Shown here piece after piece: positions 5,071 to 48,516 of a DNA stretch of 58,096 nt. Numbering within the stretch: position 1 is the first letter of the stretch; every line of letters begins with the position of its first letter. The notes beneath the pieces were generated by a model. The model worked only from the letters and a program-made list of their open reading frames with translations, searched no databases and was not told the origin of the DNA. The stretch is from Candidatus Omnitrophota bacterium. GTDB taxonomy: Bacteria; Omnitrophota; Gorgyraeia; Aquiviventales; Aquiviventaceae. The translations under genes and the position numbers were made by a program. Location: positions 1 to 58,096 of the forward strand of contig JACQHR010000003.1 in the NCBI GenBank assembly GCA_016198905.1, in the 5' to 3' direction.

Positions 5071-5145
5071 GGGGGCAGGGGGCAGGAGACGTGGGGCGCG
5101 GAAATCCGCATTTCCCATGCCCCGTGTCTCACGCCCCTTGCCCCT
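5071..5145. repeat. Heptamer hairpin cassette, GGGGCAG...GAGAC...CCCC-rich family
   Basis: Left arm GGGGGCAGGGGGCAGGAGACGTGGGGCG, inner perfect hairpin GGAAAT-CCGC-ATTTCC, and an imperfectly complementary right arm CATGCCCCGTGTCTCACGCCCCTTGCCCCT. It starts 4 nt after the hisB stop. Confidence 0.85.
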
Positions 5146-5166
5146 TCTGCATCTTCTGGAGCAGGA

Positions 5167-5796
5167 ATGATTGTGATTGTCGATTACGGCATGGGCAACT
5201 TGCGCAGCGTCTCGAAAGCCCTCGAGTCGCTCGGGGCTTCGGTGCGCGTCTCGAGCGATCCTCGTGACGTCGCGCAGGCGCAGAAGCTGATTCTTCCTGG
5301 CGTGGGGGCGTTTCCCGCTGCGATGCGGGAGCTGTCGTCGCGCACGCTGGTGGAACCCATCAAGACGGCGATCAGCAACGGCGTGCCGTACCTGGGCATT
5401 TGCCTGGGGCTACAGCTGTTGTTCGAATCCAGCGACGAGGGAGAGCAAACGACAGGGCTTGGCGTGTTGAAGGGACGTGTGACGCGCTTGGCAGTCAAAC
5501 CACCGCTGAAAATTCCGCACATGGGGTGGAATCAAGTAGCCAGCACACAGCACACAGCACACAGCACACAGCAACAATGTCCGCTGCTCAAAGGGATTCC
5601 GGAGAAGAGTTTCTTCTACTTTGTGCACTCGTATGCGGCGAAGCCGGCGGATCGATCCATCATCACATTGGAAGCGGAGTACGGCGAACCCGTGACGGCG
5701 ATGGTCTGGCAGCGCAACCTCTTCGCCACGCAGTTTCACCCTGAGAAAAGCCAAACGCTCGGCCTGAAATTGCTGCAGAATTTCATTAACTTGTAG
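5167..5796 (+). CDS. hisH: Imidazole glycerol phosphate synthase, glutamine amidotransferase subunit
   Basis: 209 aa. GICLGLQLL (catalytic Cys), HMGWNQV, FVHSY and QFHPEKS motifs. Carries an in-frame CAGCACA array. Confidence 0.92.
   Translation: MIVIVDYGMGNLRSVSKALESLGASVRVSSDPRDVAQAQKLILPGVGAFPAAMRELSSRTLVEPIKTAISNGVPYLGICLGLQLLFESSDEGEQTTGLGVLKGRVTRLAVKPPLKIPHMGWNQVASTQHTAHSTQQQCPLLKGIPEKSFFYFVHSYAAKPADRSIITLEAEYGEPVTAMVWQRNLFATQFHPEKSQTLGLKLLQNFINL
5541..5575 (+). repeat. (CAGCACA)4 plus one degenerate unit, in frame inside hisH
   Basis: Tandem heptamers read directly. Translated as STQHTAHSTQQ between the conserved HMGWNQV and PLLKGI blocks. Confidence 0.9.
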
Positions 5797-46097: not shown

Positions 46098-47161
46098 TGC
46101 CTCCACAGACCTCGTATCGTCCCGGCCGATTGCGCCAGCGCGCAGCCACGCGTGCGCTGATTCGCGAAACGTCTCTGCGCGTCGAGCAGCTCGTGATGCC
46201 GCTGTTCGTGCGCGCGGGCAAGGGCGTGCGCGCGCCGATTCCGTCGATGCCAGGGCAGTTTCAATTTTCCGTGGATCAGCTCGTCAAGGAATGCCAGGAG
46301 CTGCACGCGCTTGGCGTGCCGGCGGTCTTGCTCTTCGCGCTGGCCGAGCGCAAAGACGAGCGAGCCACGCGTGCGTACGCCAAGGACGGCCTGATGCAAC
46401 AGGCCGTTCACGCCATCAAATCGGCGGTGCCAAGTCTGCTCGTGATCACGGACGTGTGCTTGTGTGCGTATACGAGTCATGGGCACTGCGGAGTTCTCAA
46501 GTCGGCTCCAGGCTCCAGGCTCCAGGCTCCAGGTAGAAAGAAATCTAGGTCTCCGGTCTCCGGTCTCCGGTCTCCGGTCTCCAGTGATGTCATGATCGAT
46601 CGAGAGGCGACGCTGGAGTTGCTCGCGAAGACCGCATGCTCGCATGCGCAGGCCGGAGCGGATCTCGTGGCTCCCTCGGACATGACGGACGGCAACGTCG
46701 GCGCGGTTCGCCAGGCGTTGGATCGCGCGGACTTTGAGCAGGTGCCGATTCTGGCGTACTCCGTCAAATATGCGTCGGCGTTCTACGGGCCGTTTCGAGA
46801 GGCGGTGGATTCGGCTCCGCAGTTTGGCGATCGGCGCTCGTATCAGATGGACGTCGCCAATAGCGATGAGGCGCTGCGCGAGGCGCGGCTCGATATCGAG
46901 CAAGGCGCGGACATTGTGATGGTCAAGCCGGCGCTTGCGTACCTCGACGTGATCCGGCGGCTCAAGCAAGAGCTGGGCTACCCGGTCGCCGCATTCAACG
47001 TCAGCGGGGAATACGCGATGGTGAAAGCGGCCGCTGCGCGCGGATGGATTGCGGAGCGATCCGCATGGCAGGAAATGCTCACCGCGATGACGCGATCCGG
47101 CGCGGACATCCTGATGACGTACTGGGCGAAGGACGCCGCCCTCTTTCTCCGACAACGATGA
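46094..47161 (+). CDS. hemB: Porphobilinogen synthase (delta-aminolevulinate dehydratase)
   Basis: RLRQRAATRALIRET, DVCLCAYTSHGHCG, APSDMTDG, IVMVKPALAYLD. Carries a ~27-codon in-frame repeat cassette. ATGATG at the upstream stop. Confidence 0.9.
   Translation: MMPPQTSYRPGRLRQRAATRALIRETSLRVEQLVMPLFVRAGKGVRAPIPSMPGQFQFSVDQLVKECQELHALGVPAVLLFALAERKDERATRAYAKDGLMQQAVHAIKSAVPSLLVITDVCLCAYTSHGHCGVLKSAPGSRLQAPGRKKSRSPVSGLRSPVSSDVMIDREATLELLAKTACSHAQAGADLVAPSDMTDGNVGAVRQALDRADFEQVPILAYSVKYASAFYGPFREAVDSAPQFGDRRSYQMDVANSDEALREARLDIEQGADIVMVKPALAYLDVIRRLKQELGYPVAAFNVSGEYAMVKAAAARGWIAERSAWQEMLTAMTRSGADILMTYWAKDAALFLRQR
46504..46577 (+). repeat. Two direct heptamer arrays in frame inside hemB
   Basis: (GGCTCCA)x4 (46504-46533), 15-nt spacer, (GTCTCCG)x3 GTCTCCA (46549-46577). 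Translated as [27 protein letters not shown]. Confidence 0.9.
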
Positions 47162-48516
47162 AGGTTGTGAGAGCTGCTCGCCGGCAACGAGTGCCTTTCG
47201 TTTCACGTTTCACGTCTCGCGTTTCACGTCGCAACGTGAAACCTGAAACCCGAAACGTGAAACGAGGCGGAGGTAGTGATAGTGCGCAATGCTTAGTCGG
47301 CGGCGTCAACAGCCCAGTGCGCGCGTTTCGGCATGTGGGCGGTGATCCGCTGATGGCGGCGCGAGCGCGCGGCGTCTCGCTCGTGGATACGCAGGGACGA
47401 ACGTATCGCGACTTCATCATGGGCTGGGGTGCGTTGATACTGGGGCACAATCCTCCCGCGGTGATGCGCGCGATTCGTCAGGCCGCCGCGCGAAGCACCG
47501 TCTTAGGTCTAACGCATCCGGCAGAGGTCGAGCTCGCCCGGCTCATCGTCGAAGCGGTGCCGTCGGTGGAGCAGGTGCGGTTCACCGTCTCAGGCACCGA
47601 GGCCTGCATGACGGCGGTGCGCCTGGCGCGCGCCCACACGGGCCGGACGCGCGTGCTCACCTGTGAGGGCTCCTACCACGGGCATGGCGATACGCTGATG
47701 GCGGGCAAGACCGCGGGCATTCCCGTGGACTACGCGCGTCATCTCATCACGGTGCCCTTCAATGATCGCGGCGCATTCGAAGAGGCGATCGCGCGCCACC
47801 ACGAGACGCTCGCGTGTGTCATCGTGGAGCCGGTGGCGGCCAATACCGGCGTCATTCCTCCCATAGCCGGATGGCTGCGGCGACTGCGAGCGCTGACATC
47901 GCAGCATAGGATCGTCCTTATCTTTGATGAGGTCGTGACCGGGTTTCGGTTGGCGCGCGGCGGCGCGCAAGAAGCCTTCGGCATTACGCCGGATCTGACA
48001 ACGTTCGGCAAGATCATCGGCGGCGGATTGCCCATCGGCGCGCTTGGAGGGCCTCGGCGCCTGATGCGGCGGCTCGCCCCTGAAGGCGATGTGTATCACG
48101 GCGGCACATTCGCCGGCCATCCGCTGAGCATGGCCGCCGGTGTGGCTACCTTGCGAGCGCTGCAGGCGCATCCGCCGTATGCGCGCCTTTCGTCGCTGAC
48201 GCAGGAGCTCGTTGACGGACTACGCGCAGTCGCCGGCAAGGTTGGTGTTGCCATCCACATCAATGTGACGGGGTCGATGTTCACGGTCTTCTTCACGCAG
48301 GCGCCAGTCCGCAACGCGGCCGATGTGAGCGCCAGCCGCCGGGATCAGTTCGCGGTCTGGTCGCGCGCGCTGCGAGCGCAGGGCATTCTCATTCCTCCAT
48401 CGCCTTATGAGGCGATGTTTCTCTCGACCGCTCATCGACAAGCAGATGCGGACGCCTTCGTGCGAGCCGCGCGTGCCGCGTTTGCCGCGGTGGCCGACGG
48501 CGTGCGTGGAGCGTAA
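47158..48516 (+). CDS. hemL: Glutamate-1-semialdehyde 2,1-aminomutase
   Basis: GGVNSPVRAF, GWGALILGH, FGKIIGGGLPIGA. Start uncertain: ATG 47158 (ATGA overlap with hemB, reads through the hairpin) or in-frame GTG 47236 / 47257 inside the GTGAAAC arm. Confidence 0.88.
   Translation: MKVVRAARRQRVPFVSRFTSRVSRRNVKPETRNVKRGGGSDSAQCLVGGVNSPVRAFRHVGGDPLMAARARGVSLVDTQGRTYRDFIMGWGALILGHNPPAVMRAIRQAAARSTVLGLTHPAEVELARLIVEAVPSVEQVRFTVSGTEACMTAVRLARAHTGRTRVLTCEGSYHGHGDTLMAGKTAGIPVDYARHLITVPFNDRGAFEEAIARHHETLACVIVEPVAANTGVIPPIAGWLRRLRALTSQHRIVLIFDEVVTGFRLARGGAQEAFGITPDLTTFGKIIGGGLPIGALGGPRRLMRRLAPEGDVYHGGTFAGHPLSMAAGVATLRALQAHPPYARLSSLTQELVDGLRAVAGKVGVAIHINVTGSMFTVFFTQAPVRNAADVSASRRDQFAVWSRALRAQGILIPPSPYEAMFLSTAHRQADADAFVRAARAAFAAVADGVRGA
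47199..47264. repeat. Heptamer hairpin cassette, GTTTCAC / GTGAAAC family
   Basis: CGTTTCACGTTTCACGTCTCGCGTTTCACG-TCGCAA-CGTGAAACCTGAAACCCGAAACGTGAAACG. Confidence 0.88.

Follow-up and report, generated by a model that had tools for sequence, protein, structure and literature searches.

What are the short tandem repeats, most of them 7 nt in unit length and many of them arranged as the two arms of a hairpin, that lie between and even inside the genes of an Omnitrophota contig? The question is raised by contig JACQHR010000003.1 of a Candidatus Omnitrophota bacterium (GenBank assembly GCA_016198905.1), the whole of which, 58,096 bp of metagenome sequence, is called the window here. An earlier note on this DNA had described a window-wide layer of heptamer arrays. 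We have followed up this layer and counted 17 array-bearing sites, termed cassettes A to Q (Table 1), with period-7 arrays at 13 of them and arrays of period 8 to 9 at four. We class the cassettes among the small palindromic dispersed repeat elements; they unite arrays of heptamers with inverted arms and with copies that lie in frame in coding sequence. With a probability of roughly 0.6, we consider them to be several families of small (~60-130 nt), non-autonomous palindromic repeat elements in a high-GC Omnitrophota clade.

Arrays, hairpins and repeat families

Tandem Repeats Finder (TRF) reported period-7 arrays at positions 5070, 5541, 6712, 6801, 7238, 7273, 11440, 11857, 17918, 17965, 18428, 18475, 22456, 28009, 46504, 46548, 47199 and 47233, and thus recovered the described layer at essentially all of its coordinates. 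In a run-length scan, the window contained 12 period-7 runs with a score of at least 12, compared with a mean of 0.0 in 20 dinucleotide shuffles; each of the other periods from 4 to 12 gave 0 to 2 runs. The described layer is real. The outside control consisted of 80 unrelated bacterial tsaD loci found by the universal motif GIETSCDE (relatives at most 48% identical among the matches listed), and it gave 14 period-7 runs in 1,282 kb, or 0.011 per kb, versus 0.21 per kb in the window. Control loci labelled as Omnitrophota showed a period-7 array density 12 times that of other phyla (p = 8e-5). The description of the families as heptameric needs correction for families v, vi and viii, whose periods by TRF are 9, 8/16 and 8, respectively, and a family-ii entry at 29061-29090 was too decayed for TRF detection.

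Inverted arms around a loop were found at 11 sites by an inverted-repeat search combined with RNA folding against shuffled sequences. Eight of these stem-loops (A, C, H, I, J, L, N and Q) fold far below their shuffles, with z values from -5.2 to -11.8 and site I as the most extreme, while the folds at F, G and K, which belong to families i and v, are weaker (z -1.8 to -2.7). No significant hairpin was detected at the in-gene arrays 5541-5573, 7238-7303, 11388-11493 and 46504-46582 (fold z above -1.5). The proposed architecture of stop codon, arm, loop, complementary arm and start codon is therefore valid for the intergenic cassettes between co-directional genes, but not for the arrays within genes, which form no long hairpin. 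Cassettes occupy 11 of the 24 intergenic gaps of at least 40 nt, usually completely, from just past the stop codon to the ribosome-binding site.

The arrays fall into families that recur at separate places. Family i lies at three unlinked window sites (5068, 11809 and 22401), family iii at four (7238, 11388, 17918 and 18428) and family ii at three (5541, 6708 and 28005); at least five unit families have two to four sites each inside the 58 kb of one contig. The GAGAC/GTCTC core that had been read as common to several families is present in families i, iii and iv and missing from ii, v, vi, vii and viii, and in place of one underlying element type we find distinct dispersed repeat families. A related contig, L166 (compared loci carry L numbers here), has a (GGAGACC)n...(GTCTCAT)n cassette.

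Following the earlier suggestion to search public genomes with arm sequences, metagenome contigs were scanned with the family-i 5' arm (GGGGCARGGGNNNNGAGNCNNGGGGC), and matches were found in at least 120 contigs and more. About 30 of the 125 matches listed are complete cassettes: they also have the 3' arm (CCCCACG)n, although the query did not contain it. The family-i consensus reads GGGGCAG GGGGCGG GAGACNN GGGGCGG GGGAA, loop, (CCACGCC)n CCCC. The conservation extends to arm positions that the search pattern left free, with a mean pairwise arm identity of 0.83 among the matches listed; for instance, the 5' arm of cassette K and that of a cassette at an unrelated locus of L083 agree at 27 of 31 positions. 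Families iv, v and vii are also present in these metagenome contigs (family v, for example, in L132). After masking of the pattern hits, the cassette-bearing contigs contained 13 arrays of period 7, three of period 8 and none of any other period. There was no sign of a phage origin, the family-i arm scan of viral contigs having given only 4 hits. The G-arm-first polarity of family i (22 downstream versus 0 upstream) was rejected as evidence of any special mechanism, since a palindromic element keeps its arm order when it is reverse-complemented. Cassette A itself fits the family-i pattern on both strands.

Whole elements recur within a genome with their loops. In L185 (5527-6309), a single valS gene contains two family-i cassettes in frame, 711 nt apart and identical at 70 of 72 positions, loop included. 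Similarly, two cassettes of L083 have both arms and loop in common and differ at two positions, which lie in the 3' arm. Between genomes, the arms are 83-88% identical and the loops are unrelated. Thus at the same codon of orthologous rluD genes (L088 5004-5089 and L206 371-444), the family-i arms are 88% and 83% identical and the coding flanks 73% and 66%, with unrelated loops. A third family-i 5' arm was also seen near the two valS cassettes of L185.

Orthologous slots show an exchange of content among the syntenic relatives compared, namely L081 (GCA_041643015.1), L083/L084 (JGI Ga0247727_10000015, 361 kb), L085 and L086. The gspE/gspG and gspG/pilin gaps hold family iii in the window, GTTGGAA/TTCCAAC arms in L081 and family i in L083, so that these two slots are hairpin-filled in all three genomes that cover them. 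The hemB/hemL gap carries family vii (GTTTCAC/GTGAAAC) in the window and AGTGGCC/CACTCGT arms in L084, and is empty in L085 and L086. At tsaD/mgtC, where the window has a family-i cassette, the L083 genes overlap and leave neither gap nor cassette.

In-frame copies within housekeeping genes

Three genes of the window, hisH, tsaD and hemB, carry in-frame insertions without stop codons. This agrees with the claim of in-frame coding insertions made earlier, and alignments with homologues and solved structures show the extra residues in each of them. Array B of hisH encodes STQHTAHS, about 8 residues more than in the solved HisH 4gud, and the 28 extra residues of HemB form a clean insertion between residues 140 and 141 of the solved ALAD 1w1z. 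At the position of the ~35-residue insertion in TsaD, aligned relatives have a variable insertion or none. This insertion is modelled as a disordered loop: in the AlphaFold2 model, residues 237-259 form a coil between two helices, with a predicted local distance difference test score (pLDDT) below 50.

Each protein has one fixed insertion site in the homologue alignments, which lies past YQYVQK in TsaD, past HGHCGV in HemB and past AIDAKR in HisF. At these sites, the insertion of homologues is either absent or different in length and sequence; many HemB relatives have one of the GSRLKAQ...SLQPRAE type. The inserted peptides show the 7-residue periodicity expected from translated heptamers, as seen in GSRLKAQ...SLQPRAE, VTSGQWSVTSG and QHTAHSTQHT, and also in SPVSGLR. 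Elsewhere, family i lies in continuous open reading frames (ORFs) of valS (twice), lysS, rluD, kdsB, a glycosyltransferase gene and tsaD, where it encodes peptides such as GQGAGDKGRGK...PRPTPHAP or GGRGQETGG...PRPSPH. It should be pointed out that a further HemB homologue, P0122 (476 aa), contains an internal duplication of ~120 residues and does not have the insertion of the clade; probably this protein is either a distant paralogue or the product of faulty assembly.

All seven coding array units are free of stop codons in every sense frame, and TGA occurs within the intergenic 3' arms AGTCTTG, GTGAAAC and GAGCCAATGAACCAGT. The hisH site is a lone array; at the other in-gene sites the second array is of the GTCTCCR type and is not the complement of the first. 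We ascribe the pairing of CAAGACW with GTCTCCR in the in-gene cassettes of the window to the fact that the true complement AGTCTTG, the 3' arm of family iii, contains TGA. The poor in-gene hairpins would then follow from the replacement of this complement by GTCTCCR. Removal of the in-gene cassettes by translational bypass, splicing or an intein-like process was considered and rejected: every in-gene copy is in frame and stop-free, and ordinary translation is therefore favoured.

Competing explanations

As we picture it, the element would consist of a pair of inverted arms that enclose a short loop, and either arm would itself be a tandem array of 7-nt units (8-9 nt in some families). Whole elements, with the loop, would be copied to new sites within the genome, and by analogy with repetitive extragenic palindromic (REP) sequences and their hairpin-forming doublets (REPINs), this copying probably depends on an enzyme that is encoded at another place and acts in trans on the DNA hairpin. 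Replication slippage would then expand, contract and homogenise the arrays of the inserted copies. Copies would persist where they do little harm. One such refuge would be the short gaps between co-transcribed genes, where the copies would be transcribed as stem-loops without a U-tract and might incidentally stabilise or punctuate the mRNA. The second would be permissive surface loops of housekeeping proteins, in which only in-frame, stop-free versions could persist, to be translated as disordered Gly/Pro/Ser-rich loops. What the analysis shows is the dispersal, the family structure, the turnover at orthologous sites, the in-frame, stop-free nature of the coding copies and a modelled disordered loop; mobility as the cause, a mechanism at the DNA level and any effect on RNA are what we infer.

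Several points weigh against this proposal. Neither a target-site duplication nor a shared target motif was found at 24 family-i insertion sites, and an NCBIfam scan of 50 window ORFs gave no transposase-like match. The complete divergence of the loops between genomes is unusual for simple copy-paste transposable elements of the miniature inverted-repeat type (MITEs). The occupancy of the pilin gaps in three of three genomes could reflect selection for a hairpin rather than permissiveness. Furthermore, the evidence comes from 58 kb of host genome and from fragments of relatives, and the placement in Omnitrophota comes from the source names of homologues that are 65-93% identical to the window proteins. 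A variant in which the arms are added by templated repeat addition or fold-back repair, instead of copying of the whole element, is disfavoured because recent copies in the same genome share the loop and because family vii has the opposite arm order in L150.

Unlikely, in our judgement, is the view that the cassettes are selected RNA elements. The cell would then need a hairpin at operon junctions as an mRNA 3'-end stabiliser, a processing barrier, a partial terminator or a site for an RNA-binding protein, and the repeat families would be the mere form that the hairpin takes. The usually complete filling of the occupied gaps would fit such a role, as would the strong hairpins of different sequence in the gspE/gspG and gspG/pilin slots of three genomes. 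Moreover, two gaps of L081 (12448-12540 and 16200-16282), which are orthologous to other gaps of the window, contain non-heptamer hairpin repeats of the AATCTGYGYAATC family; therefore hairpin filling of intergenic gaps extends beyond the heptamer families. For the hairpins of the cyanobacterial short tandemly repeated repetitive (STRR) sequences, transcript stabilisation or translational coupling has also been suggested (PMC2670836), and RNA roles of the above kind have been proposed for them as well as for REP sequences and bacterial interspersed mosaic elements in E. coli.

Against a selected RNA role stand the empty slots in close relatives, which are many, and the presence of the same elements within genes, where one would hardly expect a regulatory hairpin. 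Intrinsic (Rho-independent) terminators were rejected as an explanation: T-runs are missing past the stems, and in the terminator and promoter scan, whose scope was 4600-24599, no plus-strand cassette had a U-tract or was flagged, and terminator-like sites were not enriched (11 found versus 14.2 expected). Rfam at gathering thresholds reported two transfer RNAs (tRNAs) only and no cassette match. The stem mismatches revealed no sense-strand G·U bias, with 11 G·U versus 21 A·C mismatches in the window and 13 versus 68 in the family-i copies. Family i occurs in both orientations relative to the neighbouring genes, in the same direction ~17 times and in the opposite direction 7 times. Because of the missing terminator signal, Rfam match and G·U bias, the two orientations and the empty slots, a selected sense-RNA role is not regarded as the primary reason for the elements. 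By analogy with what has been suggested for STRR hairpins and REP, transcribed stem-loops in operons may still affect mRNA decay, and the consistently filled pilin slots may be the best candidates for such an effect. As a separate observation, cassette H (14694-14747, a GTGGCCAC array) looks like a terminator with a T-run only on the minus strand; the genes taken as real are all on the plus strand.

Less probable again is an origin by local microsatellite dynamics alone, in which a chance heptamer would expand in place by slippage and acquire its inverted arm by fold-back or template switching. Nothing would then be copied between sites, and the likeness of the units would stem from a shared mutational or compositional bias. 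Some features of the arrays do suggest slippage and homogenisation: different copies have 3 to 5 units in the 3' arm, and the 3' arms are more uniform than the 5' arms. The lone arrays at 5541 and 28005, which have no partner, also fit this view. Heptamer simple sequence repeats (SSRs) are over-represented generally in bacteria whose genomes are large and GC-rich (PMC4692102). In L107, L122, L136, L151, L200 and other contigs with a GC content of 0.40-0.76, we also saw long and pure arrays of G-rich heptamers (GGGGCAA/GAGGCAA/GGGGACA), some exceeding 20 units, without an inverted arm. What speaks against purely local dynamics is that the 33 nt of the family-i 5' arm form a specific sequence which is not uniform and is conserved at unrelated sites in many contigs, that near-identical whole elements, loop included, stand twice in one valS gene, and that the arms of the rluD cassettes are better conserved than the flanking coding DNA. 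Two further observations concern related arrays. An inverted C-rich arm is present beside the G-rich arrays in contigs L105, L144, L179 and L189, and in a low-GC Omnitrophota metagenome-assembled genome (MAG), L014 (7476-7932), inverted arrays (TAGGTTT)n and (ACCTAAC)n enclose a short segment at a distance of 430 nt from each other, in the manner of terminal repeats of a larger unit.

That the arrays are chimeric or collapsed sequence made by the metagenome assembler is highly improbable and, for the layer as a whole, largely refuted: an independent Logan assembly of SRR12113385 matches window positions 9506-12700 with 0 mismatches and reproduces cassettes E and F, homologous cassettes are present in assemblies of many samples from NCBI, JGI and ENA, the in-gene cassettes keep the reading frame, and family-i pattern hits at contig ends (7 observed versus 4.4 expected) are not significantly enriched (p = 0.15) and so lend no support to the idea that the arrays break assemblies.

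The earlier warning that arrays might be confined to artificial joins does apply to one cassette, D at 7238-7303, which links a truncated hisF with a truncated gatA; both genes are intact and unlinked in relatives. By NCBIfam coverage, the hisF match ends at residue 137 of 254, and past the cassette gatA begins at about residue 328 of 466, both reading frames being open through the cassette. Relatives have an intact gatC-gatA upstream of gatB. The break in the window HisF coincides exactly with the HisF insertion hot spot of the clade, and in L083 the corresponding loop of GatA bears a small insertion. Since a real rearrangement would destroy two essential genes, and since the same repeat families stand on both sides of the junction, cassette D is most likely a misjoin inside one genome between two in-gene cassettes of the same family. 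Exact look-ups of the hisF fragment and of GatB (two alternative starts) retrieved no independent assembly of the junction. In addition, the annotation of P0313, a HisF homologue on a 175-kb contig of an NCBI MAG, marks the protein as partial, and its end coincides exactly with the AIDAKR hot spot. This suggests that the hot spot also causes difficulties in other assemblies or annotations.

Gene context, known repeat systems and meaning

The cassettes are collected in Table 1. All annotated genes over the entire contig are housekeeping genes on the plus strand. Their order is alaS, hisDBHA, a hisF fragment, a gatA fragment, gatB, ctp, tsaD, mgtC, two helix-turn-helix (HTH) genes and larB, followed by two gspE-like ATPase genes, pilin genes, polA, coaE, rho, prfA, prmC, murA, rpsP, trmD, rnhB, folD and metF, and then by gcvTH-PA-PB, two metE-like genes, panB, the haem genes hemC, cobA/hemD, hemB and hemL, and finally rex, ubiE and ispB. 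The GC content of the host is about 62%. The nearest HemB, HisF and TsaD homologues (65-93% identical) belong, where named, to Candidatus Omnitrophica/Omnitrophota, e.g. RIFCSPHIGHO2_02_FULL_63_14; from this naming the host is taken as a high-GC member of Omnitrophota, and the gene content is, as stated earlier, not cyanobacterial.

Table 1. Cassette sites of the window, with their arrays and predicted folds
Site	Family	Coordinates	Strand	Location	Arrays and detection	Folded interval	dG	z
A	i	5068-5148	+	hisB/hisH gap	G-rich arm GGGGCAG GGGGCAG GAGACGT GGGGCG, loop, C-rich arm; TRF	5066-5150	-63.4	-8.5
B	ii	5541-5573	+	in frame in hisH	single array (CAGCACA)x4.7; TRF, 100% matches; no hairpin			+1.6
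C	ii	6708-6834	+	5' arm is 3' end of hisA; hisF start at 6839	(AGCACAC)x4, 63-nt loop, CTGTGTG-type arm; inverted repeat 32 nt, 84% complementary	6705-6838	-44.1	-5.2
D	iii	7238-7303	+	truncated hisF/truncated gatA junction	(CAAGACW)x4 then (GTCTCCG)x4.4			
E	iii	11388-11493	+	in frame in tsaD	CAAGACW array, loop, GTCTCCR/GTCTCNG array; ~35 extra residues			
F	i	11809-11883	+	fills tsaD/mgtC gap	(GCCCCAC)x3.9; TRF		-44.5	-2.7
G	v	13122-13213	+	between bactofilin-HTH gene and HTH gene	period 9, GCCGGTTNN ... AACGGGCNN; TRF			-1.8
H	viii	14694-14747	+	upstream of, or at 5' end of, first gspE-like ATPase gene	palindromic period-8 array (GTGGCCAC)x4.2; TRF	14692-14749	-33.5	-6.5
I	iii	17918-17990	+	gspE/gspG gap, filled	(CAAGACT)n CGAGACCGG, 3-nt loop, CCGGTCTCG (AGTCTTG)n; 34-nt arms (34-bp stem), 97% complementary	17914-17992	-66.9	-11.8
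J	iii	18428-18516	+	gspG to next pilin gene	(GACACAA)x4, loop, (GTCTTGR)x5; TRF	18424-18520	-45.2	-6.1
K	i	22401-22487	+	polA/coaE gap, filled	(CCCACGC)x4.6; TRF			
L	v (period 9/18)	24364-24449	+	directly past rho stop codon	inverted repeat 32 nt, 81% complementary	24360-24452	-44.3	-5.5
M	ii	28005-28034	+	murA/rpsP gap	lone array (CAGCACA)x3.7, no inverted partner; TRF			+0.1
N	vi (period 8/16)	34735-34819	+	gcvH/gcvPA gap, filled	TRF	34730-34822	-41.3	-5.7
O		37615-37677	+	gcvPB 3' end	two weak period-7 arrays AGTCCAT, GCTGCAG; TRF, 76-80% matches; no hairpin			+0.2
P	iv	46504-46582	+	in frame in hemB	(GGCTCCA)x4.3, loop, (GGTCTCC)x5; 28 extra residues; no hairpin			+0.7
Q	vii	47198-47265	+	hemB/hemL gap	(GTTTCAC)n, 4-nt loop, (GTGAAAC)n; inverted repeat 32 nt	47195-47268	-36.6	-6.7

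The membership of site O in the cassette layer is doubtful; relatives have no gap at this position at the 3' end of gcvPB. Some other peculiarities of the contig were observed. Window 42201-42420 is a non-repetitive gap of only 220 nt, at which L084, L085 and L086 have a ccsA-like gene (~147 aa) and hemA (~350 aa) between the gene for the cysG N-terminal domain and hemC; the gap could reflect the loss of these genes, their relocation or another fault of the assembly. The spacer between hemC and cobA/hemD (43333-44567) measures 1.2 kb versus 150-300 nt in relatives and contains a tRNA-Arg(CCG) gene at 44043-44117 and two unrelated inverted repeats at 43973-44020 and 44429-44554. Two tandem paralogous short MetE-like (Meth_synt_2) genes at 38598-40668 are kept in every relative examined.

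In the literature that we searched, no description unites heptamer arrays, inverted arms and in-frame copies, and none deals with repeats of Omnitrophota. The earlier statement that no description combines these features was nevertheless too strong, given three precedents: the 7-bp STRR repeats of Nostoc/Anabaena, which form hairpins between co-transcribed genes (PMC2670836), the heptamer SSRs over-represented in bacteria, with STRR in cyanobacteria among them (PMC4692102), and the Rickettsia palindromic elements (RPEs), which lie in frame in housekeeping genes (PMC10969869).

STRR sequences, including the hairpin-forming hupS-hupL STRR, resemble the cassettes in being tandem heptanucleotides that lie mostly between co-directional genes and sometimes form hairpins (PMC2670836; PMC4692102). 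STRR sequences comprise several families per genome with many dispersed copies, a trait which the cassettes may share. They differ in that their hosts are heterocystous cyanobacteria and not Omnitrophota, whereas the cassettes have the inverted-arm hairpin as the rule for intergenic copies, are conserved as whole cassettes across genomes and frequently occur in frame in housekeeping genes. The cassette unit CCCCACG is similar to the STRR1 unit CCCCAGT, reportedly described by Mazel et al. in 1990; as a set, the cassette units differ from the STRR1-3 units.

REP sequences, bacterial interspersed mosaic elements (BIMEs) and REPINs of proteobacteria are mobilised by REP-associated tyrosine transposases (RAYTs), and they share with the cassettes the short imperfect palindromes, the dispersal, the location in gaps of co-transcribed genes, the genome-specific families and the slot turnover between related species; REPINs are inverted doublets that form hairpins, and REP copies number in the hundreds (PMC3116915). 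The 11 inverted-arm cassettes are hairpins of this kind, with z values down to -11.8. However, REP arms are not tandem arrays of short units, REPs are essentially extragenic whereas cassettes also lie in genes, sequence similarity is absent, and no RAYT is linked to the cassettes. With MITEs, the cassettes have in common that the arms act as inverted repeats, but the duplications of the target site are missing at the 24 family-i copies.

RPEs are palindromic families found both between genes and within unrelated housekeeping genes, where they keep the reading frame and give rise to a fold-compatible extra peptide on translation (PMC10969869). Family i likewise lies in frame in unrelated housekeeping genes, and families iii/iv do so in tsaD, hemB and at the hisF/gatA junction of the window. 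In contrast to the cassettes, RPEs are ~100-150 bp long, AT-rich, restricted to Rickettsia and not composed of tandem heptamers, and the cassette peptides are of low complexity with 7-residue repeats. Judged by the GC-rich heptamer composition and the host, homology between the two is very unlikely. The G-quadruplex heptamers GGGNATC/GGGGAYT of Xanthomonas and Nostoc are also transcribed G-rich arrays which prefer about four units and are located between aligned ORFs, near a start or stop codon (PMC4692102); in family i, the 5' arm (GGGGCAG)n similarly has at least four G-runs. The descriptions of these heptamers are of lone arrays that are under-represented in coding sequence, whereas the cassettes pair a G-rich with a C-rich arm, mostly belong to families that are not G-rich and are common in coding sequence. 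The cassettes thus lack defining features of STRR (host and units), REP (extragenic position), MITEs (target-site duplications) and terminators (U-tract).

For metagenomics, the cassettes are hot spots of length variation in the marker proteins TsaD, HisF, HemB and ValRS, with at least one probable misjoin at a cassette, and they could be used as lineage-specific markers. The in-frame copies form a natural experiment which reveals the loops of essential enzymes that tolerate disordered insertions of 8-40 residues. Heptamer-hairpin repeats, known from cyanobacteria and unexplained after 35 years, would now extend to an unrelated, uncultured phylum and would be joined to RPE-type selfish DNA in essential genes. 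They would also provide a second, independent system for asking why the unit is 7 nt long and what propagates the elements. A bolder version, with the odds somewhat against it, is that the cassettes might form a class of mobile hairpin elements which is active and has so far escaped recognition, with heptamer-array arms and mobilised by an enzyme linked to no repeat family as yet. If this is true, such elements would be abundant enough across Omnitrophota to contribute a major share of the new disordered loops of essential proteins, including aminoacyl-tRNA synthetases, TsaD, HemB, HisF and GatA.

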